Source of the DNA: Chthoniobacterales bacterium
Lineage (GTDB): Bacteria; Verrucomicrobiota; Verrucomicrobiia; Chthoniobacterales; UBA10450
DNA length: 21,401 nucleotides
Direction: 5' to 3'
NCBI GenBank assembly: GCA_035536995.1
Contig: DATLNB010000063.1
Span: forward strand, 1 to 21,401
This document shows positions 9,512 to 21,151 of this stretch, piece after piece (position 1 is the first letter of the stretch; each line of letters starts with the position of its first letter). The notes under the pieces were generated by a model, which was not told the origin of the DNA, ran no database searches, and saw nothing but the letters and a program-made list of their open reading frames with translations. The position numbers and the translations under genes are program-made.

Positions 9512-9958
9512 ATGCATTCGTTTTCCAGTTCCCTCCATCATTGTGTCTTTGCGACAAAACAGCGCGAAGGACTTCTGGTTCCAGCCATTAGCGACCGGCT
9601 CTGGCCGTACCTCGGAGGAATTGCGCGCGATAACAAAATGAAAGGTCTCGCGATCGGTGGCGTGGCTGATCACGTTCATATCCTGCTCAGTCTGCCGGCT
9701 ACAATGTCGATGGCAAAGGCGATGCAGCTGCTGAAGGGCAATTCTTCGAAATGGATTCATGAGACGTTTCCGAAGCTGCGCAGCTTTGCGTGGCAGGAAG
9801 GATACGGCGCCTTTAGTATTGGCGTGTCTGGAATCGAAGAGACGCGGGAATACATTCACCGCCAGGCAGAGCACCATCGGACGAAAACGTTTCGCGAAGA
9901 GGTAATCATGTTTCTTGAGCGTCATGCTATGACCTTTGATGAAGGGATGTTGGAGTAA
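9512..9958 (+). CDS. REP-associated tyrosine transposase (RAYT; IS200/IS605-family Y1 HUH transposase)
   Basis: 148 aa. The HUH motif is HVHILLSLP. The conserved tail is WQEGYGAFSIG...REYIHRQAEHHRTKTFREE, which carries the catalytic Tyr in the YIxxQxxHH context. Palindromic repeats flank the gene. Confidence 0.85.
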   Translation: MHSFSSSLHHCVFATKQREGLLVPAISDRLWPYLGGIARDNKMKGLAIGGVADHVHILLSLPATMSMAKAMQLLKGNSSKWIHETFPKLRSFAWQEGYGAFSIGVSGIEETREYIHRQAEHHRTKTFREEVIMFLERHAMTFDEGMLE

Positions 9959-10787: not shown

Positions 10788-11627
10788 GTGGCGAACGACC
10801 CTGGCATCCTGGGAGAAGAAGCTCAGCGCCATTACCGCGATGGGATCGAGCTGTCGCGCCTGCAACGCGGCAGCGGGTCCCTGGAGTTTGCCAGGACCAG
10901 GGAGCTATTAACCCGCCATTTGCCTCAGCCGCCCGCTGTTGTTCTCGACATCGGCGGTGGACCTGGAGCGTACGCCTGCTGGCTCGCGGAGCTCGGCTAC
11001 ACTGTTCATCTGATCGATCCGGTCCCGCTCCATGTTGAGCAGGCGTCCGAGGCGTCGCGGCAACTGGCCCGCCCGGTGGCGAGCGTGGCAGTTGGCGACG
11101 CTAGAGACCTCCCCTACGGAGACAGCAGCGCTGACGCGGTCCTGCTCCTCGGTCCTCTTTATCATCTGGTTGAGCGAGACGATCGCCTCAAGGCCCTCCG
11201 GGAAGCATTTCGTGTCCTGCGTCCGAATGGACAAGTCTTTGCGGTTGGGATTTCGAGGTTTGCTTCGACGCTGGACGGCCTGAAGTCAGGTTATGTCGAC
11301 GACCCGGAGTTTGTCCGGATCTACGAACAAGACCTCCTCAACGGACAGCATCGCAATCCGACAAATCATCCCCATTATTTCACGACCGCGTTCTTCCATC
11401 ATCCCGCCGAGCTGAAAGAAGAATTGGTTGCCTCCGGTTTTGCGCACCACGGCACGTTCGGCATCGAAGGGCCGGCCTGGATGCTTCAGGATTTTTCCGA
11501 ACGCTGGGACTCGCCGCGACGGGAAAGGTTGCTGGCCATTGCACGGGCCCTCGAACAGGAGCCGACTTTGCTTGGGGTGAGCGCGCACCTTCTAGCCGTC
11601 GGGGCCAAACGGCCAATCACCTCGTAA
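10788..11627 (+). CDS. Class I SAM-dependent methyltransferase (substrate unknown)
   Basis: Motif I is VVLDIGGGPGAYACWLAELGYTVHLIDP. The acidic loop is GDARDLPY. The post-II/III segment is AVLLLGPLYHL...VLRPNGQVFAV. The start is a GTG, 14 nt after the preceding gene. Confidence 0.8.
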   Translation: MANDPGILGEEAQRHYRDGIELSRLQRGSGSLEFARTRELLTRHLPQPPAVVLDIGGGPGAYACWLAELGYTVHLIDPVPLHVEQASEASRQLARPVASVAVGDARDLPYGDSSADAVLLLGPLYHLVERDDRLKALREAFRVLRPNGQVFAVGISRFASTLDGLKSGYVDDPEFVRIYEQDLLNGQHRNPTNHPHYFTTAFFHHPAELKEELVASGFAHHGTFGIEGPAWMLQDFSERWDSPRRERLLAIARALEQEPTLLGVSAHLLAVGAKRPITS

Positions 11628-11631
11628 GCGG

Positions 11632-12363
11632 ATGCCCGAGTATATCGCCTGGCTCGCGCTTGCGGTTCTGGTTGTCGCATTCCTCTATTCGAGCGTCGGA
11701 CACGCCGGGGCGTCCGGTTACATCGCGGTGATGACCCTGTTTGGTCTCGCGCCCGCTGCCGTCAAACCGGCCGCGCTGGTCCTGAATATTTTCGTCGCAT
11801 CAATTGGGACGTGGCAGTTCTGGCGGGCGGGGCATTTCTCATGGCGCCTGTTCTGGCCCTTCGCAGTCCTGGCAATGCCGATGGCTTTCGTGGGCGGCTA
11901 CACGAATCTCCCCACGAACACTTTCAAGGTGCTGGTTGGAATTGTCCTGCTGGTCTCCGCGGCGCTCTTTATCGTTCGCCCCTCGAATGACACAGTCGCC
12001 CGCGATCCCAATCGTTTACTCGCCATCATTACTGGCGGCGCGCTTGGGTTGCTGGCCGGATTAACCGGCACCGGCGGTGGTATTTTTCTCACCCCGCTTC
12101 TCCTCTTGATGCGCCGGGCGAAAACCAAGGCGGTCGCGGCCGCGTCCGCGCTTTTCATTCTGGTAAATTCCGTCTCCGGTTTATTGGGAAACCTGAGCAG
12201 CACGAAGAACCTTCCTTCGTTCTCGTTTATCCTCCTCGGCGCAGCGGTGGCCGGAGGCGCCGCCGGTTCCTACTTCGGAAGCCAGCGGTTCAATCACATC
12301 GTGATCAAGCGGCTGCTCGCGGTTGTGTTAACGATCGCCGGATTAAAACTGATTTTGGCCTGA
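11632..12363 (+). CDS. TauE/SafE-family (DUF81) anion permease
   Basis: 243 aa with about 7-8 hydrophobic helices. The sequence is Gly-rich and internally duplicated (SSVGHAGASGYIAVM / LTGTGGGIFLTPLLL), which is typical of the TauE/SafE family. It starts 4 nt after the methyltransferase stop. Confidence 0.75.
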   Translation: MPEYIAWLALAVLVVAFLYSSVGHAGASGYIAVMTLFGLAPAAVKPAALVLNIFVASIGTWQFWRAGHFSWRLFWPFAVLAMPMAFVGGYTNLPTNTFKVLVGIVLLVSAALFIVRPSNDTVARDPNRLLAIITGGALGLLAGLTGTGGGIFLTPLLLLMRRAKTKAVAAASALFILVNSVSGLLGNLSSTKNLPSFSFILLGAAVAGGAAGSYFGSQRFNHIVIKRLLAVVLTIAGLKLILA

Positions 12364-12461: not shown

Positions 12462-13937
12462 ATGCTTCATAAATCGCGTTCTCGAAACTGTTGCGGTTAC
12501 GTCGGAGCGGTTCTGCTCGCGGCCTGGCCAATCCAACCGGCCGCTGCGCAGGCGACTTCGGACTCAGAGCGCCTGGAAAAATTGGAGCGCGCCGTCGAAC
12601 TACTCCAGAAACGGAATGCGGAGCTGGAACGGGAAGTCCAGAGCCTGAAGAATCAGAAGTCTGCGCCATCCACGGTTTCCGTACCGGCCCCTCGACCGCT
12701 CAGAGAAGAGAAACGTTCCCACTTCGTCCCGGACTCGAAATCGTATGTCGAGAGGACGGAACTAAAGGAAGAGAAGAAGCCCCTTTTTGTGATCGCGGGC
12801 GCTTCGGAAATCAAGCTGACGCTCGGTGGTTTGCTCCAGGTCCAATACGAAGGCGGGGATGTTTTCGCTTTTGAAGGCCGATTTGGGTCGGGCGCAATTG
12901 ACGACCGTTTCCGCGTCCGGCGCGCCCGAATCAACGTCACGGGCGACTTCGCCGAGCAATTCGATTTCAAGCTCGAGGGTGAATTTGCACAGAGCGACGT
13001 GGCGCTCACCGTCCGCGACGCGACGGGCCGGACGCTGGCTTCGAATTCCAGCCGGACTGCGTTTGGCGCTCTCGATCTCTTTGCCAACTGGCACCAGTTT
13101 CCCGAATTCCAAGTCAAGGTGGGCCAATACAAAGCGCCGTTCGGGCTGGAGCAGATCAGCGCCGATCCCAAATTGTTCACCGCTGAGCGGAGCCAGGTCA
13201 CGAGCGCTCTTACGCCGGAGCGCCAGGTCGGAATTCAGATTTGGGGCAAACCGTTCACTCACGCTTTTCCGGAGCAAAAGGATCTGCTGACTTATTGGGT
13301 CGGGATGTTCAACGGCAACGGCCGCAACGTTACGATCAACGATAACGACGAATACATGTATGCAGGCCGGATCGAGGTTCAGCCGTGGAAGGGCAAAGTC
13401 GCGGACCAGGATCTGTGGGTAAAAATCGGGGCCAACGCGCTGCAGAGCCGCGATGCGAGTGGGACGCTCCTGTCCCCCGCAGGCACCTTGCGGGTCAATG
13501 CCGACGGATCCCTAAGCAGCTTCACCGCGCCCTCGGCTGCGGAACGTGAAGGCTGGGGCGCTGATGCGGCTTTTCACTGGGGGCCGTTCGATCTAATCGG
13601 CGAATATCTGAGCGAGAACTACGATGGCCGGATCGTCAACGGCGTCCTGCCCACGTTCGACGATTTTGGCGCTGAAGGTTATTATGTCCAGGGGAGCTAT
13701 TTTATTATCCCGAAGAAACTTCAGGTGGTGACCAAGTACGAACATTTCAATCCCGGGCAGATCATCGATGACAATCTCGACTCCCTGACCGGCGGCGTGA
13801 ATTACTACATCCACGGCGACGACGTGAAGCTCATGGCGAATTACATCCATACCTGGTCGAAGTTCCGCGAAGCCCGCCCGGCTCTCGGCGCGTCCGATTT
13901 CGACGAATTTATTCTGCGACTCCAGATCGTTTACTAA
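12462..13937 (+). CDS. OprO/OprP-type (phosphate-selective porin O/P family) outer-membrane porin with an N-terminal coiled-coil
   Basis: It has a signal peptide (MLHKSRSRNCCGYVGAVLLAAWPIQPAAAQA) and a coiled-coil (ERLEKLERAVELLQKRNAELEREVQSLKN). A beta-barrel body follows with the family-typical RFRVRRARINVTGDF...FDFKLEGEF and alternating aromatic strands, ending in ...ILRLQIVY. Confidence 0.75.
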   Translation: MLHKSRSRNCCGYVGAVLLAAWPIQPAAAQATSDSERLEKLERAVELLQKRNAELEREVQSLKNQKSAPSTVSVPAPRPLREEKRSHFVPDSKSYVERTELKEEKKPLFVIAGASEIKLTLGGLLQVQYEGGDVFAFEGRFGSGAIDDRFRVRRARINVTGDFAEQFDFKLEGEFAQSDVALTVRDATGRTLASNSSRTAFGALDLFANWHQFPEFQVKVGQYKAPFGLEQISADPKLFTAERSQVTSALTPERQVGIQIWGKPFTHAFPEQKDLLTYWVGMFNGNGRNVTINDNDEYMYAGRIEVQPWKGKVADQDLWVKIGANALQSRDASGTLLSPAGTLRVNADGSLSSFTAPSAAEREGWGADAAFHWGPFDLIGEYLSENYDGRIVNGVLPTFDDFGAEGYYVQGSYFIIPKKLQVVTKYEHFNPGQIIDDNLDSLTGGVNYYIHGDDVKLMANYIHTWSKFREARPALGASDFDEFILRLQIVY

Positions 13938-13964: not shown

Positions 13965-15119
13965 ATGAACACCATCAACCCAGAGTCAGAAGTCCGGAAA
14001 CGTTACGCCGCCGGCGCCCAGGCACAGGAGGCGAAACTTTGTTGTCCGGTCGATTACAACACCGACCTGCTGAAAATCATTCCGCAGGAAGTGATTGATC
14101 GCGATTACGGTTGCGGCGATCCGAGCAAATATTTGCACGAAGGCGAGACGGTCCTCGACCTGGGAAGCGGGACAGGAAAAATCTGTTTCATCGCCGCCCA
14201 GGTTGTCGGCGCGAGCGGCAAAGTGATTGGGGTCGATATGACCGACGAGATGCTCGAGGTCGCGCGCCGGAACGCGCCAATCGTGGCTGAGCGGATCGGA
14301 TACGCTAACGTGGAATTCCGGAAAGGCCGGATCCAGGACCTGGCCCTGAGTATCGATCTGCTCGACGCCGAGCTGAAACGGCGGCCGATCAACGATGCCG
14401 CGTCATTCCTTGCCGCGGACGACCTTGCCCGGGAACTTCGGGTCAAGAGTCCGCTCATCGCGAACGACTCGGTGGACGTGGTCGTTTCCAACTGCGTCCT
14501 GAATCTCGTGGAGCCGCAGGCTAAACGGCAGCTGTTCGAGGAAATCTTTCGAGTCCTGAAGATCGGGGGACGGGCTGTCATCTCCGATATCGTGAGTGAC
14601 GAAGCGGTTCCCGAACATCTCCAGAACGATCCGGAGTTGTGGAGCGGCTGCATTTCAGGTGCGCTAACCGAAGAAGGTTTCGTCACTGCTTTCACCAACG
14701 CCGGTTTCTACGGCGTCCAGATTTTGAAGCGGGACGAACAGCCTTGGCAGACTGTGGAAGGAATCGAGTTTCGATCCGTTACGATCGAAGCCTTCAAAGG
14801 AAAACAGGGCCCGTGTGTCGAGCGCAACCAGGCCGTCATTTACAAGGGACCGTTCAAGGAAGTACTCGATGACGACAATCACCGGATGGAACGGGGACGG
14901 CGATACGCAGTCTGTGATAAGACTTACAACATCTATCGCAAGGCGCCCTACGCCGGCTCTTTTGAGTTGGTCGATCCGTTAAGACCTGTCCCGGCCGAAG
15001 AGGCTCGGCCTTTTGATTGCTCCCGCACCGCGTTGCGCCATCCGAAAGAAACAAAGGGACTGGACTACGACGTCACCACCGAAGCATCGCAATGCTATGA
15101 CGGCGGGAATTGTTGTTAG
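13965..15119 (+). CDS. arsM: Arsenite S-adenosylmethionine methyltransferase homologue, with an internal insertion and a Cys-rich C-terminal extension
   Basis: It is collinear with known ArsM sequences: VRKRYA, CC (C26/C27), YGCGDP (C50), GETVLDLGSGTG, GVDMTDEMLEVARRN, NVEFRKGRI, SVDVVVSNCVLNL (C177), FRVLKIGGRAVISDIV and LWSGCISGAL (C229). It has an extra ~40-aa insert (residues ~127-167) and a ~110-aa tail ending QCYDGGNCC. Confidence 0.8.
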   Translation: MNTINPESEVRKRYAAGAQAQEAKLCCPVDYNTDLLKIIPQEVIDRDYGCGDPSKYLHEGETVLDLGSGTGKICFIAAQVVGASGKVIGVDMTDEMLEVARRNAPIVAERIGYANVEFRKGRIQDLALSIDLLDAELKRRPINDAASFLAADDLARELRVKSPLIANDSVDVVVSNCVLNLVEPQAKRQLFEEIFRVLKIGGRAVISDIVSDEAVPEHLQNDPELWSGCISGALTEEGFVTAFTNAGFYGVQILKRDEQPWQTVEGIEFRSVTIEAFKGKQGPCVERNQAVIYKGPFKEVLDDDNHRMERGRRYAVCDKTYNIYRKAPYAGSFELVDPLRPVPAEEARPFDCSRTALRHPKETKGLDYDVTTEASQCYDGGNCC

Positions 15120-15844
15120 GCCGGCTCGTTCGCCCCGTAGTACCAGCGGTGGAGAGTGATCGGCGAAACGCCGGCCTTGAAGAAGAGGAGAAAGAGGCCG
15201 TTTTGGATGCTCGTCCGCCACGCCCCCTTGCGTTGATGATGCCGCGCCGACGAGCGAACCGGCGGATCAAGCAGCGCGATTTTCCCGGCCCGGCGCAACC
15301 TTTTTGAAAACTCGACGTCTTCCATCAGTGGGATCGGGGCGAACCCCCTCAGCTGCATAAACACTTCGCGCCGGACGAAGATGGTCTGGTCGCCGAAGAG
15401 AGTTCCACCGTGGTGCCCACGCCAGCGCGCGACCCTCTCCAGCCATCTCAAGCGCGGATGGCGGTCATCGAATTTGCGATGAAAGGCGCCTCCTACTACG
15501 GCGGTGTCCGACAACGCAGTTTCGATGGCCTGCAAATGTAATTCACTGAATTCAGTATCGGCGTGCTGGAAGATGAGGACGTCGCCGGCAGCGAGTGAAG
15601 CGCCGAGGTTCATTTGTTCGCCGCGGTTGGGGCGCGGCACGCAGACGATGCGCACCTTTGTGGAAGCGGGGCCGTTTATGAAGTCGTTGGGACGGCACGG
15701 CGGCCGTCCCTCCACCGGAACGTCCACGACGATGATTTCTACGCGGCCCGAAAGCGTGGAGAGCCTGGGGAGCAGCGTGGAAAGATTCTCGGCGTCGCGC
15801 CACGCCGGAATCACGAAGCTGACAGCCGGGCTTTCCGCGCTCAC
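15116..15844 (-). CDS. Family-2 glycosyltransferase-like protein of the radical-SAM/selenodomain-associated (TIGR04283-like, 'arsenosugar biosynthesis glycosyltransferase') type
   Basis: Signatures are VSFVIPAWRDAENLSTLLPRL..VEIIVVD, LIFQHADTEF, GGAFHRKF and FGDQTIFVRREVFMQLRGFAPIPLMEDVEFSKRLRRAGKIALLDPPVRSSARHHQRKGAWRT. I place the start at GTG 15844, which overlaps the upstream stop (GTGA). The track ORF extends to 15994 inside the upstream gene. Confidence 0.7.
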   Translation of the reverse strand: MSAESPAVSFVIPAWRDAENLSTLLPRLSTLSGRVEIIVVDVPVEGRPPCRPNDFINGPASTKVRIVCVPRPNRGEQMNLGASLAAGDVLIFQHADTEFSELHLQAIETALSDTAVVGGAFHRKFDDRHPRLRWLERVARWRGHHGGTLFGDQTIFVRREVFMQLRGFAPIPLMEDVEFSKRLRRAGKIALLDPPVRSSARHHQRKGAWRTSIQNGLFLLFFKAGVSPITLHRWYYGANEPA

Positions 15845-17274
15845 TCGAGCGGGCTGGCGGGCTGCGGTTGTTTTCTGAGCTCCGGGTCCTGGAGCCGCTC
15901 GCTGTACACGTCGCTCCAGGTTTGCTGATTCATCGCGCACATCGGCACGGCTTCCCACTCTCCGTTGCGTTTTACTGCGCCTTTGAACACGCACGAATCC
16001 AGCCGCGCCCGGATAACCGGATCCGTCGTCGCGCTGGCGACCTTTTCCGAGCCCATGAAGTTATGCATCCCAACACCGAGCGTGTGGACCTTGCCCCGCA
16101 ACAACGACTGAAAAATTTCTCGCGGCGCGTTCCGTGAACGGAGATACCGGATCATCCTGGTAGCGACCCGCGCCAACAGAACAGGGTTCTTGAAGAGCAC
16201 CCCGGCGAGACGATAGGGCGGCGTCCCGGCGTCGTCGTTGACCAGGGAAAGGCCGCCAATCTCGCGGAGGACTTCGCCTAACAGGTCGTCGAACTCCGGA
16301 TCGTCGGGCAGGAGCGGGAAATATTTCCCGGACGGTCGCGCGATCAGGAGGGAGGCCCAGCTGTTGCAATCCGGGTGACCAAAAATGGAGACGTCGCGTC
16401 GGAGCGGGAGGCCCACGCCTTCGCAGATCTTTTCCCAGACGTCCGCCGAGGTAATCGGGTTTTGCGAAAAAAGGGTCCGGCCGGTGTCCGCTTCCGGTTG
16501 GAAGCTGAGCATGCGCCAGATATAACTGCGTTGCGGATCGGCCAAATACCAGCGGATCACTTCCGGGACGTCGGCGAGATTACGGCGCGTCACCGTGAAG
16601 CTGAGGGCGTATTCGAGGATGAACCCCGTCTTCGCTCGAATTCCGAGCGCCAGGTCGGTAAAAGCTTGTCGGACGGGATGCAGGTCCGCTTCGCATTTGA
16701 TCCGGCCGATCGGATATCCGTGCCGGCCGGCCTGCGTCATGTCCACGTGGACCGAGATCTGGCGAAGCCCCCCTTCCACCACGAGGCGTTCCAAAAATTC
16801 CGGATGCTCGATCAGGGTCTGGCCATGCGTCATTAGCATCGGGATCGAACCAACCGAGTACGCATAACGGACGATCTCGATGAGCTCATCGGCGCGGCCC
16901 GATCTCCAATAGGCGTCGGCAACATCCCCACCCGTGATTTGAAGCCCACCCCCCGGACCTTGGAACCGCCGGTTCGCATCGATCTGTTCCCGGACCTGCG
17001 CCAGCGAAGGGATCGGAATCGAGTTGGCGTTTTTCGGGAGGTAACAATGGGTGCAGTGAAACGAGCAATAGCTTGCGCCGAGAGTGAAGCCGCAGTGGGT
17101 CAGGTGGCGCCCGGAGATCTGGTTGTTGGTTTGAAGCTCTGGCGGGAGCGAGTCCCACCGCTCCCTGAGCACCCGGGCCTTTTCCTCTACAATCGGCTGC
17201 CGAAAGGCCTGCCAGCGCTGCCGCCACCGGGACGGCCGCGACGTTTCGGTTTGAGGATGCGCGAGCGAGACCAT
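15841..17274 (-). CDS. Radical SAM enzyme, uncharacterised 477-aa family
   Basis: CSFHCTHC (CX3CX2C; residues 70-77, nt 17044-17067) is followed by a GGE-like motif, LQITGGDV. I recognise no B12-binding domain and no SPASM/twitch Cys cluster. It starts 4 nt after the DUF547 stop and overlaps the GT start by 4 nt. Confidence 0.75.
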   Translation of the reverse strand: MVSLAHPQTETSRPSRWRQRWQAFRQPIVEEKARVLRERWDSLPPELQTNNQISGRHLTHCGFTLGASYCSFHCTHCYLPKNANSIPIPSLAQVREQIDANRRFQGPGGGLQITGGDVADAYWRSGRADELIEIVRYAYSVGSIPMLMTHGQTLIEHPEFLERLVVEGGLRQISVHVDMTQAGRHGYPIGRIKCEADLHPVRQAFTDLALGIRAKTGFILEYALSFTVTRRNLADVPEVIRWYLADPQRSYIWRMLSFQPEADTGRTLFSQNPITSADVWEKICEGVGLPLRRDVSIFGHPDCNSWASLLIARPSGKYFPLLPDDPEFDDLLGEVLREIGGLSLVNDDAGTPPYRLAGVLFKNPVLLARVATRMIRYLRSRNAPREIFQSLLRGKVHTLGVGMHNFMGSEKVASATTDPVIRARLDSCVFKGAVKRNGEWEAVPMCAMNQQTWSDVYSERLQDPELRKQPQPASPLE

Positions 17275-17278
17275 TTCT

Positions 17279-18016
17279 CTATTTAACTTCGTTCAACGCC
17301 CAATCGTAATTTTGGTAACTGATTTTCACGTCAGCGGGAAGCGGCTTCGAACGCCGCTTGTTGATGAACGCCACCGGCCCACCGTCTTTGAAGTCATCCT
17401 TGTACCAATCAAAAATCTTGGAAAGCTCGGCCGTCTTCGCCCCCTCCTGCCAGGCCACGCCTCTGGGGCTGTTCACGAAGCTGCGGGAAAGGCGCTCCAG
17501 TTGTGAATCGAGGTTCCCGCCCCGATAAGCTTCCGAGCTGAGAGGGGGGCAGCTCTGGCTCGCGCAATTAAGGGCAAAATGAATCCGAGGTTCGGAGAAC
17601 TTCGAACGGATCGTTTCCTTCTCGAGCGCGTTGAAGCTCGTCTGTTCGCCCGCCACCTTGATTCGTTTGCTGGTGAAGAAAGTAAAGAGCGCGTCCTTCA
17701 CGCTTTTGGTCGGATATTTTTCGAGCGCTTCGTGCAGGATCCACGCGTTGTAAGCGTTGATGTAGAAGGCAAGCTGGTCGTTCCGGCTCATCGCACCCAC
17801 GTTCGCCGAACCGATTCCATCCACGACCGTCTGCAAATCTTTCATGTCCCCTGCGTTACTTTTCCACGCCGCGTATTTTACTCCCCCGTTGCTGACATAT
17901 TTTTTCAGGAGCCGATCGTAGGTATCGGTCCAATTATCAGCCGCGTCGATTCGGCTGGCTGCGATCGTCAGGCCGACTAAAACAAGGAGGAACAATGAGC
18001 CGGATCGAGTGCGCAT
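17279..18016 (-). CDS. Secreted DUF547-family protein
   Basis: DUF547 signatures are LAFYINAYNAWILHEALEKYPTKSVKD and EPRIHFALNCASQSCPPL, with IFDWYKDDF near the C-terminus. The start is placed at ATG 18016 (MRTRSGSLFLLVLVGLTIAASRIDAADNW, a signal peptide). The track ORF extends to 18115 with an Arg-rich leader. Confidence 0.75.
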   Translation of the reverse strand: MRTRSGSLFLLVLVGLTIAASRIDAADNWTDTYDRLLKKYVSNGGVKYAAWKSNAGDMKDLQTVVDGIGSANVGAMSRNDQLAFYINAYNAWILHEALEKYPTKSVKDALFTFFTSKRIKVAGEQTSFNALEKETIRSKFSEPRIHFALNCASQSCPPLSSEAYRGGNLDSQLERLSRSFVNSPRGVAWQEGAKTAELSKIFDWYKDDFKDGGPVAFINKRRSKPLPADVKISYQNYDWALNEVK

Positions 18017-18981
18017 GCTTCCAGTTCGCACCCGTTGCCTCCGTCGGGCAAGCCAAAAGCGTATTCTCCCCCCACCGTCTATTCCTTTGCATCGCCGTTC
18101 TTTGGTTTGTGGCAAACACCGCGAACGCCACGACCGTCTGGATCGATACCGATGTTTCCATCGGATCCCCGTTTCGGGAGGTGGACGACGCGTTTGCGCT
18201 GCTCCTCGCCTTTCGCTGTCCGGAGCTCCAAATCGCCGGGGTGAGCACGAGTTACGGGAACGCCCCCCTCCGAATGACGACCGCGTCGGCGCGGAAGCTT
18301 TTCGCGCAGCTCAATCCCGAGACGCCGGTGTTTCCCGGGGCAGCCTCACGGAATGACGTGGCGACCAGAACGGAAGCATCGGAAGCGCTCGCTGCTGCAT
18401 TACGCAGAAAAGGCGCTCTCACCTACGTAGCTCTCGGTCCGCTTACGAATTTGGCTGCGTTTCAAACGCTTCATCCCGCGCTCTCCCGCAAAATCGACCG
18501 AGTCATATTCCTTGGAGGGACAACTCCTGCGACAACCCTTCGTTTCGGATCGCGCCATCCGATTCGCATTCACGACGCGAACGTGGTGAAAGATCCGGAG
18601 GCGGTTGAGCGGATCCTTTGTCGGGGAAAACCGTTCACACTTATCCCGGTCGAAACCGCGGCGAAATTGACGCGGAACGCGGCAGAGCTCGATTCCTTGC
18701 GACGCGACCCAGCTGGCGATTTCGTTCAGGCCCACAGCCGCGTCTGGCTCTGGTTTTGGACAAAATTTGTGGGAACGAGCGGAGCCCCAATCTTCGATGC
18801 AGCGGCGATTCTGGCTGCGGCCGATCCGGCTTCGATGAAGATGGCAAAGCGTTTCGCGGAAATAAACGCAGTCGGAGAGCTTGTCGTGTCGAACGACCCC
18901 CGTGGGCACTCGGTTTCGCTTGCGGTTGAAGTCCGCCAGCGCGGTTATGCCTTGCTCGAGAGAAGGCTTGGCGCTCGCTGA
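17995..18981 (+). CDS. Nucleoside hydrolase (inosine/uridine-preferring IUNH fold) with a probable N-terminal signal/anchor
   Basis: The N-terminal Asp cluster WIDTDVSIGSPFREVDDAFALLLAF..PELQIAGVSTSYGNAPL is a DxDxxxDD motif with a 6-residue insert. The later APIFDAAAILAAADP corresponds to the metal-binding Asp region. A hydrophobic segment, LFLCIAVLWFVANTANA, precedes the domain. ATG 17995 is the only canonical start upstream of that segment. Confidence 0.7.
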   Translation: MSRIECACFQFAPVASVGQAKSVFSPHRLFLCIAVLWFVANTANATTVWIDTDVSIGSPFREVDDAFALLLAFRCPELQIAGVSTSYGNAPLRMTTASARKLFAQLNPETPVFPGAASRNDVATRTEASEALAAALRRKGALTYVALGPLTNLAAFQTLHPALSRKIDRVIFLGGTTPATTLRFGSRHPIRIHDANVVKDPEAVERILCRGKPFTLIPVETAAKLTRNAAELDSLRRDPAGDFVQAHSRVWLWFWTKFVGTSGAPIFDAAAILAAADPASMKMAKRFAEINAVGELVVSNDPRGHSVSLAVEVRQRGYALLERRLGAR

Positions 18982-19052: not shown

Positions 19053-20174
19053 ATGGCCATCCTTGTCGCTCTGTTCGTCGCGACCTGTTTCCTCGCCTAC
19101 TCCAACGGGGCGAACGATAACTTCAAAGGCGTTGCCTCGCTTTATGGGTGCCGGGCGGCCAATTATCGCACAGCGATTAGTTGGGCCACAATCACCACGT
19201 TTGCCGGCTCCATCGCGTCCATTTTTCTCGCGCAAGCCTTGTTGAAAAGGTTTTCCGGCAAAGGCCTCGTGCCGGATAGCTTTGTCGGCACTGAAACGTT
19301 TCTGCTCAGTGTTGCCATGGGCGCAGCCATCATTGTTATCCTGGCGACGTGGCTAGGATTTCCCATTTCAACAACACACGCGCTGACCGGCGCAATCGTG
19401 GGGTGCGGCCTCGTGTCAGTCGGAACGGGAGTGAACTTCGGGGCCCTGGGCAAAGGCTTTGTCCTGCCTCTCTTGCTCAGTCCGTTGGTCGCCATCCTTC
19501 TCGGCGCGTTGATCTATTTTATCCTCCGCGGCTTCCGGCTGATTTGCGGCGTTAAGAAAGAATTGTGTATTTGCCTCGGCGCGGAAGAACGCGTTGTTGC
19601 TCTGCCGCAGCCGCATTCCATTCTGGCCTTCCAAACCTCGCGCGCCATTACTTTGACCGTTGATCAGGAGGAGAGCTGCCAGGAACGTTATGCCGGATCG
19701 ATGCTTGGCCTGACCGCGCAACAAATCATGGATGGCGCCCATTTTCTGAGTGCGGGAGTAGTGAGTTTCGCGCGCGGCCTCAACGACACGCCGAAGATCG
19801 TCGCCATGCTCCTTCTCCTGAAAGCGATGGACATTCGCTGGGGATTTTTCGCGGTCGCAGTCACGATGGCGGTTGGCGGGTTATTGAACGCGCGCCGGGT
19901 CGCTGAGACAATGAGCCACAAAATCACCGCCATAAATCACGGGCAGGGACTCTCGGCGAATCTGACGACCGGTCTCCTCGTCATCATGGCAAGTGTGTTC
20001 GGGCTCCCGGTCTCGACCACCCAGGTCTCGGTTGGCGCGCTCTTCGGAATGGGCGTGATCACCGGGCAAGCCAACCTGCGGGTGATGGCCAACATTGTCC
20101 TCTCGTGGCTCATTACATTACCGTGTGCCGCGATTATTAGCGGTGCCGCCTACGCCCTCCTGAAAAACCTGTGA
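19053..20174 (+). CDS. PiT (PHO4) family inorganic anion (phosphate/arsenate-type) transporter
   Basis: 373 aa and polytopic. It has the duplicated PiT signature: N-terminal YSNGANDNFKGVASLYG and C-terminal FARGLNDTPKIVAML. The central loop contains CIC and a third Cys. Confidence 0.8.
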   Translation: MAILVALFVATCFLAYSNGANDNFKGVASLYGCRAANYRTAISWATITTFAGSIASIFLAQALLKRFSGKGLVPDSFVGTETFLLSVAMGAAIIVILATWLGFPISTTHALTGAIVGCGLVSVGTGVNFGALGKGFVLPLLLSPLVAILLGALIYFILRGFRLICGVKKELCICLGAEERVVALPQPHSILAFQTSRAITLTVDQEESCQERYAGSMLGLTAQQIMDGAHFLSAGVVSFARGLNDTPKIVAMLLLLKAMDIRWGFFAVAVTMAVGGLLNARRVAETMSHKITAINHGQGLSANLTTGLLVIMASVFGLPVSTTQVSVGALFGMGVITGQANLRVMANIVLSWLITLPCAAIISGAAYALLKNL

Positions 20175-21151
20175 ACCTGACCGCGACCAACAGTTTCGCC
20201 CGCCGCCTGGCCGAGCACTCGTTGCCGCTCAAGCATGCAAAAACGGAAGTGCTCCAGATAAACGTTGGAAAGCTCTGCAATCTGACGTGCGTTCATTGCC
20301 ACGTGAATGCCGGTCCCAGGCGAAAGGAAATCATAAGCCGGGCGACTATTGACCAGCTGATCGACTGGCTGGCCAAGACTGATATCCCCACGGTCGATCT
20401 CACGGGCGGCGCTCCCGAAATGATTCCGGATTTCAAGTATCTGGTGACTCGACTCAAAGCCTTGACGCCGCCGCGCCATATTATTGACCGGTGCAATCTG
20501 ACGATCCTGCTCGAGCCCGGGTTTGAGGATTACGCAGAGTTTTTGGCCGAGCACCGAATCGAGATCATCGCGTCCATGCCCTGTTATTCGGCGGAGAACG
20601 TGAATGCCCAGCGGGGCGAGGGCGTCTTCGACGCGAGCATCAAGGCGCTTCAGCTTTTGAACTCGTTAGGTTACGGGACCCGGCCGGACCTGCCTCTCCA
20701 TCTTGTTTATAACCCGAACGGGGCTTTCCTCCCCAGCCCGCAGGAAGAGCTGGAAGCGGATTACAAGCGCGAGCTACAGGAACATTTCAAAATCACCTTT
20801 AACAGGCTCTACACGATCACAAACCTCCCGATCGCGCGCTTTGCGTCGTATTTGAAGAACAACAACCTGCTCGGTGATTATATGGCCCTGCTAAACGATG
20901 CCTTTAATCCTGCCACGGTGAACGGGTTGATGTGCCGGAACACGATCAATGTCAGCTGGCAGGGCGAGGTGTTCGATTGCGATTTCAACCAGATGCTGAA
21001 GCTGCCGTGGTCCGGCCCCGGCGAGAGCGGGGCGATGCATTTGTGGGATGTGGATCCAGCGCGGGTCGAGGAGCGCGAGGTCTTGATTGGCGACCATTGC
21101 TTCGGATGCACGGCGGGCGCCGGCTCCAGCTGCGGCGGCGCGCTGGTATAG
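20171..21151 (+). CDS. arsS: ArsS-type radical SAM protein with a Cys-rich C-terminal domain (TIGR04167-like 'arsenosugar biosynthesis radical SAM protein'), Cys form
   Basis: The radical SAM motif is CNLTCVHC (CX3CX2C; nt 20276-20299) in the context LQINVGKLCNLTCVHCHVNAGPRRKE. DLTGGAPE is the GGE motif. The C-terminal segment is CRNTINVSWQGEVFDCDFNQML...IGDHCFGCTAGAGSSCGGAL. The GTG start overlaps the PiT stop (ctGTGAac). Confidence 0.8.
   Translation: MNLTATNSFARRLAEHSLPLKHAKTEVLQINVGKLCNLTCVHCHVNAGPRRKEIISRATIDQLIDWLAKTDIPTVDLTGGAPEMIPDFKYLVTRLKALTPPRHIIDRCNLTILLEPGFEDYAEFLAEHRIEIIASMPCYSAENVNAQRGEGVFDASIKALQLLNSLGYGTRPDLPLHLVYNPNGAFLPSPQEELEADYKRELQEHFKITFNRLYTITNLPIARFASYLKNNNLLGDYMALLNDAFNPATVNGLMCRNTINVSWQGEVFDCDFNQMLKLPWSGPGESGAMHLWDVDPARVEEREVLIGDHCFGCTAGAGSSCGGALV

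Follow-up and report, generated by a model that had tools for sequence, protein, structure and literature searches.

A predicted exported nucleoside hydrolase of an uncharacterised subfamily in a Chthoniobacterales arsM/arsS cluster: a possible accessory enzyme acting on the ArsS product

The DNA considered here (the window, 21,401 nt) comes from a metagenome-assembled genome of the Chthoniobacterales (Verrucomicrobiota), and its right half is occupied by an arsenic cluster, recognised from Pfam and NCBIfam profile matches (Table 1). Within this cluster lies a gene for a nucleoside hydrolase (NH), followed by genes for a PiT/PHO4-family transporter and for ArsS, the arsenosugar radical S-adenosylmethionine (SAM) enzyme. 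The NH and PiT genes are separated by a gap of 71 nt with no terminator-like site in a promoter/terminator scan, which returned no promoter-like site either, and the PiT stop and the ArsS start overlap by 4 nt. Co-transcription of the three genes, as assumed in the preliminary description of this DNA, is plausible. (An Rfam scan of the window gave no match.) The secreted DUF547 protein to which that description also drew attention is encoded divergently, and its start (ATG 18016, reverse strand) overlaps that of the NH gene (ATG 17995, forward strand) head-to-head by 22 nt.

Why would a nucleoside hydrolase be encoded together with ArsS? The preliminary description took it to be a candidate for the missing step in which adenine is removed from the ArsS product, a step for which no enzyme was known to it. 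Among the papers that could be searched up to 2026, a set that leaves most subscription journals uncovered, none names an enzyme that removes adenine in arsenosugar synthesis, and a 2026 preprint states that the adenine "can then be removed" with the enzyme unnamed.

Table 1. Genes of the arsenic cluster and features of the NH gene (window coordinates).
Feature	Position	Strand	Remarks
Methyltransferase	10788-11627	+	
TauE-family exporter	11632-12363	+	
Phosphate-selective porin O/P family protein	12462-13937	+	PF07396, 113 bits
ArsM arsenite methyltransferase	13965-15119	+	339 and 210 bits with NCBIfam models for ArsM, neither reaching its curated cut-off (500 and 263)
Glycosyltransferase (GT) TIGR04283	15116-15994	-	186 bits against a cut-off of 182
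477-aa radical-SAM-like protein	15841-17274	-	Flanked by the GT and DUF547 genes; weak match to PF04055 (27.4 bits; gathering cut-off 29.5)
DUF547 protein with signal peptide	17279-18016	-	PF04784, 94.8 bits; N-terminus MRTRSGSLFLLVLVGLTIAASRIDA; divergent from the NH gene
Shine-Dalgarno AAGGAGG and ATG start of NH	17984-17997	+	Inside the signal-peptide codons of the divergent DUF547 gene; same layout in L003-L005
NH gene, 328 aa	17995-18981	+	PF01156; mature domain from about residue 46
Predicted signal-peptide core and cleavage region, HRLFLCIAVLWFVANTANA	18067-18129	+	Predicted cut before TT; AxA directly ahead of beta1
Enlarged Asp fingerprint DTD-VSIGSPFREV-DD (D51, D53, D64, D65)	18145-18189	+	Profile alignment to NHs in the PDB
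H193-D194-A195-N196	18571-18582	+	Equivalent to the (A)E166-F-N168 ribose-binding segment, Glu to Asp; D194 and N196 invariant
F267-D268	18793-18798	+	Equivalent to His241-Asp242; leaving-group His to Phe, Ca ligand Asp retained
PiT/PHO4-family transporter	19053-20174	+	PF01384, 219 bits; downstream of the NH gene
ArsS, arsenosugar radical SAM enzyme	20171-21151	+	TIGR04167, 436 bits against a cut-off of 300

The product of the NH gene clearly belongs to the nucleoside hydrolase family. Residues 48-313 match PF01156 (IU_nuc_hydro) with 134 bits (gathering cut-off 34.2; E 1e-38), over profile positions 1-290 of 297, and the AlphaFold (AF2) model, with a pLDDT of 90.3 and a pTM of 0.86, has the alpha/beta fold of the family. 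Foldseek matched it to 4kpn (E 4e-20), with TM scores of about 0.7 to 3b9x, 3g5i and 2mas; the model superposes with a TM of ~0.7 on plant NRH1, YeiK, RihA and 2MAS. The fold proposed from the bare sequence thus holds. A homology search found 702 homologues; the counts of invariance that follow refer to 217 homologues, 110 Verrucomicrobial and 107 Planctomycete. The protein falls well outside the RihA, RihB, RihC and UriH equivalogs of NCBIfam, scoring at best 62.9 bits against a cut-off of 433.

Residue equivalences were taken from an alignment to YeiK and plant NRH1 and read against a published description of the active site (PMC8910321). D53 corresponds to Asp10, D64 and D65 to Asp14 and Asp15, N89 to Asn39, T151 to Thr126, N196 to Asn168 and D268 to Asp242, and all of these residues, like D51, are invariant among the homologues, save for a single Ser at T151. 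The Ca2+ ligand set (Asp10, Asp15, the Thr126 main chain and Asp242) accordingly aligns with D53, D65, T151 and D268. The spacing of the Asp residues departs from the canonical DxDxxxDD, being DTD-x10-DD, although all four Asp residues are there. An insert at this point had been noticed before; the loop is indeed enlarged and atypical, but by 7 residues rather than the 6 first given. Three further departures had gone unremarked. The beta3-alpha3 loop, which carries His82 in other NHs, falls about 28 residues short of its length in plant NRH and 26 short of that in YeiK, and the alignment to YeiK and NRH1 shows neither an HG..G segment nor a His or Trp in what is left of it. His241 is replaced by Phe267, which is invariant apart from Tyr in 3 of the 107 Planctomycete sequences, where the leaving-group residue would be His in group I, Trp in group II or Cys in group III. 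Glu166 is replaced by Asp194; the position equivalent to Asn160 is variable.

As judged from these alignments, the NH fits none of the structural groups I-III (as defined in PMC8910321): it has none of the known devices by which the leaving group is activated, while the metal site and the catalytic base are intact. It would best be described as a Ca2+-dependent enzyme of the N-ribohydrolase fold, representing an uncharacterised subfamily whose members come chiefly from Verrucomicrobiota and Planctomycetota. Because all of the Ca ligands and the catalytic Asp are retained, it is probably an active riboside hydrolase; because the base-activating elements of the known nucleoside hydrolases are gone, its substrate is probably no ordinary nucleoside.

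The same enzyme is most likely secreted. Its ATG is preceded by AAGGAGG, and no further in-frame start occurs before GTG 18109. The identical protein in NCBI (P0001, 100% identity, annotated as a nucleoside hydrolase) begins at that GTG and is 290 aa long; this PGAP start was rejected, since it has no ribosome-binding site, cuts through the conserved hydrophobic core and removes the signal peptide. The deposited start was likely mis-called because of the overlap with the DUF547 gene. The longer N-terminus consists of an unusually long n-region of about 27 aa, the hydrophobic stretch LFLCIAVLWFVA and NTANA, followed directly by TTVWIDTD, a layout typical of Sec signal peptides, and residues 26-43 are modelled by AF2 as a helix ahead of the NH fold. 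The hydrophobic segment was no accident of one sequence: the layout recurs in 107 of 108 Verrucomicrobial and 101 of 102 Planctomycete full-length homologues, many of which have textbook signal peptides of 21 aa. This pattern makes a strong case for export via Sec. Within the 5' coding region, the block GGGCAAGCCAAAA (18046-18058) is nearly unchanged, wobble positions included, across the seven related loci compared, which suggests an element that works at the level of DNA or RNA, for instance an operator or a promoter, within the gene.

The association of this NH with ArsS was followed in two sets of loci. The genome scan covered 80 ArsS loci, one genome per species, mostly from Verrucomicrobiota (ArsS identity 54-87%) and with 10 kb on either side; the metagenome scan covered 80 contig loci (790 kb) seeded with a gammaproteobacterial-type ArsS. 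One NH clade, which includes that of the window, is built into arsM/arsS clusters. In all nine loci of the window type for which there is context (50-69% identity; the window itself, L001-L005, L007, L010 and L011), the NH gene lies inside the ars cluster, and it stays there despite an inverted PiT gene or an inserted ArsC-like gene; the order NH-PiT-ArsS is kept in L001, L002, L007, L010 and L011. Across the genome scan an NH gene was found within 10 kb of ArsS in 7 of the 80 loci and embedded in the ars cluster in 5, which is above chance (binomial p ~0.004 against a rough background of ~1.3% per 20-kb window, the background being our own estimate). The five represent four gene arrangements, in Chthoniobacterales and one member of the Pirellulales: the window type (L010 and L011); ArsS followed directly by the NH gene (L020); an NH without signal peptide, whose start shares an ATGA with the gene of a flavo/FeS protein associated with ArsS (L028); and, in the Pirellulales locus (L085), a kinase-NH-VTT operon divergent from Pyr_redox-FA_hydroxylase-ArsS-GT. 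The protein coupled to the NH in L028 (13270-15729, reverse strand) is an 819-aa Pyr_redox_3 and 4Fe-4S protein that is found in 7 ArsS loci.

The other neighbours of ArsS are more widely shared. The glycosyltransferase TIGR04283, which NCBIfam names the arsenosugar biosynthesis glycosyltransferase, occurs in about 30 of the 80 genome loci and in 50 of the 80 metagenome loci, where it is the commonest neighbour. ArsM occurs in about 45 genome loci and, adjacent to ArsS, in 11 metagenome loci; DUF2064/TIGR04282 occurs in 11 and about 25, respectively, and a VTT-MerA-like fusion in 26 metagenome loci. Outside the Verrucomicrobia (L088-L167) the core ArsS neighbourhood consists of TIGR04283, the CofC-like DUF2064/TIGR04282 and the VTT-MerA-like flavoprotein fusion. 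No MtnN-like gene was found in any locus by tblastn with E. coli MtnN as query, and clustering of the neighbouring open reading frames (ORFs) yielded no PNP/MTAN family among the frequent ArsS neighbours, although a distant methylthioadenosine (MTA) phosphorylase could escape this approach.

Two partners of the NH subfamily may bear on its function. The first is a kinase of the APH family, encoded in only 2 of the 160 ArsS loci (L028 and L085), both of them NH loci (hypergeometric p = 8e-4). The best NCBIfam match of both is S-methyl-5-thioribose kinase (TIGR01767), with scores of 64 and 97 bits where the cut-off is 275. The kinase gene of L085 ends 7 nt into the NH gene, with GGGAGG ahead of the NH ATG, and the same kinase precedes the NH as a coupled pair in all three further Planctomycete contexts examined (L170, L172 and L173). 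The Planctomycete kinases have no signal peptide and possess an MtnK-type GEGNMN loop, and the Planctomycete homologues of the L085 NH all carry a signal peptide, an 8-residue Asp-loop spacer and the same Asp and Phe substitutions. The second partner is DUF547. Among the listed homologues of the L085 NH, three are fused to DUF547 (NH::DUF547) and carry a signal peptide, and a search of a representative library at 50% identity added four further clusters of such fusions, with identities as low as 42%, making at least five clusters in all. DUF547 also occurs in fusions with VTT/DedA domains and with thiol-redox domains of the periplasm, and both VTT and DUF547 are recurrent neighbours of ArsS. 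The subfamily is thus tied to DUF547 by fusions and divergent pairs, and to the MtnK-like kinase by translational coupling. On the function of bacterial DUF547 proteins the searched literature held nothing relevant.

Several other gene associations in the same protein set are worth recording. In a Planctomycete operon (L170, 7766-11665, and L171) four tightly packed genes encode an ArsR-family regulator with a C-terminal GCC, an N_methyl/SBP_bac_10 pseudopilin-like protein, the MtnK-like kinase and a secreted NH::DUF547 fusion; the regulator is the first gene of this fusion operon in L170. Among P0369, P0452, P0398, P0410, P0406 and P0374 there are fusions of NH with a Ca-dependent PI-PLC-like domain, and of DJ-1/PfpI with NH and a glyoxalase-family domain; VTT/DedA is fused to DUF547 in three proteins, and DsbH/thioredoxin to DsbD_N and DUF547.

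Pairs of a nucleosidase and a kinase are well established for 5'-substituted adenosines, in methionine salvage, 5-deoxyribose salvage and the dihydroxyacetone phosphate (DHAP) shunt (PMC6079011, PMC10986504). The pairing of the NH with an MtnK-like kinase mirrors MtnN and MtnK and therefore fits a 5'-substituted adenosine such as the ArsS product. The NH might instead stand in for MtnN, acting on 5'-deoxyadenosine or methylthioadenosine, which arise as inhibitory by-products of the cluster's two radical SAM enzymes and its methyltransferases. The kinase pairing, the presence of two radical-SAM-type genes together with ArsM, and the logic of 5-deoxyribose salvage (PMC6079011) all agree with such a role. 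Those by-products are cytoplasmic, however, and the NH is exported in all cases except L028; moreover, ArsS incorporates its adenosyl group rather than releasing it, and the sister clade described below has no radical SAM context. We consider substitution for MtnN very unlikely.

The coupling of an exported hydrolase to a cytoplasmic kinase could also be understood the other way round, as catabolism or salvage. The NH would then cleave the aglycone from environmental arsenosugars or from the head groups of arsenosugar phospholipids (O-ribosides), and the released 5-dimethylarsinoyl-ribose would enter the cell and become the substrate of the MtnK-like kinase, which would phosphorylate it, much as in the DHAP shunt. 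The ArsR-regulated operon with its uptake-type pseudopilin-like gene would suit this role, as would the NH fusions to a PI-PLC-like phosphodiesterase and to DJ-1 and glyoxalase-family domains. NHs can hydrolyse aryl O-ribosides (PMC8910321), and exogenous 5'-deoxynucleosides support the growth of E. coli that has the DHAP shunt (PMC10986504). On the other hand, the cluster of the window also holds the biosynthetic ArsM and ArsS, the loci examined showed neither an MtnA-like isomerase nor an aldolase, and the argument is conjectural throughout. A catabolic role appears distinctly unlikely.

Our preferred interpretation, held tentatively and with rather less than even confidence, is that the NH is a riboside hydrolase of the cell envelope, specific to certain lineages, for which the ArsS product is the likeliest substrate here, and that it is an accessory enzyme, not the universal one for adenine removal. 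ArsS would make 5'-deoxy-5'-dimethylarsinoyl-adenosine in the cytoplasm; this product, or a derivative, would reach the periplasm, where the NH would cleave the ribosidic bond to give adenine and 5-dimethylarsinoyl-ribose; and in L028 and the Planctomycetes the MtnK-like kinase would then phosphorylate the sugar. The candidacy put forward in the preliminary description survives in this narrower form, carried by the recurrent NH-arsS arrangements, the DUF547 fusions and the kinase coupling.

A number of observations weigh against the preferred interpretation. The metagenome scan contained no NH in any of its 80 loci, so that only 5 of 160 ArsS loci have an ars-embedded NH and 155 do not; the enrichment near ArsS that had been anticipated is therefore weak in the genomes and missing from the metagenomes, and NH genes were not found recurrently beside ArsS (TIGR04167) across lineages. 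The NH is clearly no core partner of ArsS. Since most arsS clusters have no NH gene, it cannot be the general adenine-removal enzyme, and the general step must fall to other enzymes. ArsS is absent within 10 kb in three of the four Planctomycete kinase-NH loci (L170, L172 and L173). ArsS is a cytoplasmic enzyme, and export places the NH in a different compartment from both ArsS and the kinase. The characterised NHs, furthermore, require a 5'-OH (PMC8910321). To these points must be added the sister clade of NHs, which has identical active-site residues and sits in a TonB_C-NH-LpxI-ATP-synthase context (4/4) in which arsS has no part. The ars-linked clade differs from it at two positions only (97 and 190), at each of which the NHs of L020 and L028 have the non-ars residue.

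The sister clade also bears on the enlarged Asp loop, of which it had been asked whether it reshapes the pocket for the 5'-substituent. The loop is invariant across the subfamily, including the arsS-free sister clade, and the insert was rejected as an arsenic adaptation, given that positions 97 and 190 are the sole differences between the clades and that two ars-embedded NHs do not conform to them. The odd motifs are shared with a clade unconnected with arsS, and therefore are no arsenic-specific adaptation and do not mark an arsenic pocket. In L006, L168, L169 and the P0087 locus, the sister NH is in every case preceded by a small gene with a TonB_C domain and has LpxI next to it, with the ATP synthase operon also adjoining in L006, L168 and the P0087 locus; the TonB_C gene and the sister NH form a conserved pair. 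L008 and L009 were rejected as cases of ArsS linkage on these grounds: their NH, 4-8 kb from ArsS, is part of the TonB_C-NH-LpxI block, and its proximity is counted as coincidental because it belongs to a clade with a conserved context of its own.

Such findings invite the explanation that the NH is a general periplasmic hydrolase that scavenges ribosides or nucleosides, as RusNH does, and that its place in ars clusters is lineage-specific synteny with no role in arsenic metabolism. The export of the family, the arsS-free sister clade with the same catalytic residues beside TonB_C and LpxI, the coincidental synteny in L008 and L009 and the many ArsS loci with no embedded NH would all follow naturally, and RusNH of Bacteroides is an earlier example of an NH that has a signal peptide and acts in the periplasm (bioRxiv 10.1101/574913). 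Scavenging accounts less well for four different NH-ArsS gene arrangements in two phyla, for the fusion of the NH to DUF547, itself an ArsS neighbour, or for the ArsR-family regulator that heads the L170 operon. The family also lacks the His82 loop and the His241 that are used on ordinary nucleosides, and its partner kinase is MtnK-like, not ribokinase-like. General scavenging seems unlikely, though it deserves to be taken seriously.

Could the riboside hydrolase, acting on the ArsS product as proposed above, be part of a longer route? Arsenosugars are beta-ribosides. Direct transglycosylation to glycerol by the NH was judged unlikely in view of this configuration, since NHs invert at C1' (PMC8910321). 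A sequence of four steps would be stereochemically coherent, and we infer it as a whole: adenine removal by the NH; phosphorylation of the anomeric position by the kinase to give an alpha-1-phosphate; nucleotidyl activation by TIGR04282 to NDP-5-dimethylarsinoyl-ribose; and transfer by TIGR04283, a GT2 enzyme, to glycerol or other acceptors with inversion, giving the beta-riboside. GT2 enzymes are inverting (CAZy). The exported NH subfamily, the MtnK-like kinase, CofC-like TIGR04282 and TIGR04283 would together make up the route that is missing between the ArsS product and the beta-arsenosugars, with DUF547 and VTT/DedA proteins serving envelope-side traffic, and lineages that have neither NH nor kinase would rely on a housekeeping MTA nucleosidase or phosphorylase. 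That this scheme is correct in all its parts is unlikely.

Some features of the cluster stand apart from these questions. The 477-aa radical-SAM-like ORF is kept alongside TIGR04283 and DUF547 in L004, L005, L007, L011, L028 and L040, and appears to be another radical SAM enzyme, so far uncharacterised, that belongs to these ars clusters beside ArsS. The GT ORF as listed overlaps it by 154 nt; the family match of the GT begins at residue 58 and its homologues are 228-241 aa long, and its true start is probably near 15820. An IS200-type Y1 transposase gene (PF01797, 96 bits; 9512-9958, forward strand) lies between housekeeping genes (PdxJ) and the arsenic cluster.

For the steps from the ArsS product to the finished arsenosugar, to which the searched literature assigns no named enzymes, the NH, the MtnK-like kinase and DUF547 now provide candidates that can be cloned. 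The analysis also defines a large uncharacterised branch of exported NH-family proteins, in which the metal site has been kept and all of the known leaving-group devices have been lost.

How, then, does this branch compare with known systems? The group I NHs (C. fasciculata IU-NH, E. coli RihA, RihB (YeiK) and RihC, and plant NRH1) have the same fold, with a TM of ~0.7, and share the Ca2+ ligand set, Asn39 and Asn168 with the NH of the window. Relative to them, the latter has 7 more residues in the Asp loop and a predicted signal peptide and lacks about 28 residues of the His82 loop; His241 is replaced by Phe and Glu166 by Asp, Asn160 is unconserved, and its scores against the NCBIfam Rih models (at most 63 bits) are far from the cut-offs of 380-460. 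RusNH (BT2808), from the ribose-utilisation system of Bacteroides, is an IUNH-family protein that, as is predicted for the NH of the window, has a signal peptide and acts in the periplasm, beside uptake functions and cytoplasmic sugar kinases, but it has a canonical DXDXXXDD motif and belongs to a Sus-like locus with no arsenic, DUF547 or MtnK-like context. The XopQ/HopQ1 effectors similarly combine the NH fold with a non-canonical Asp motif, an intact Ca site and no canonical leaving-group residues, and their substrate, as is probable for the NH, is no standard nucleoside; these, however, are type III effectors of plant pathogens, with the motif DXXXDXDD, that bind ligands of the ADP-ribose type and are unrelated at the subfamily level. 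Finally, MtnN (Pfs) and MtnK follow the same logic as the NH and its kinase, in that a nucleosidase for 5'-substituted adenosines is followed by a kinase giving a 5-substituted ribose-1-phosphate. MtnN differs from the NH in being cytoplasmic and of the unrelated PNP/UDP fold, and the kinases described here, at 64-97 bits against a cut-off of 275, score far short of MtnK itself.

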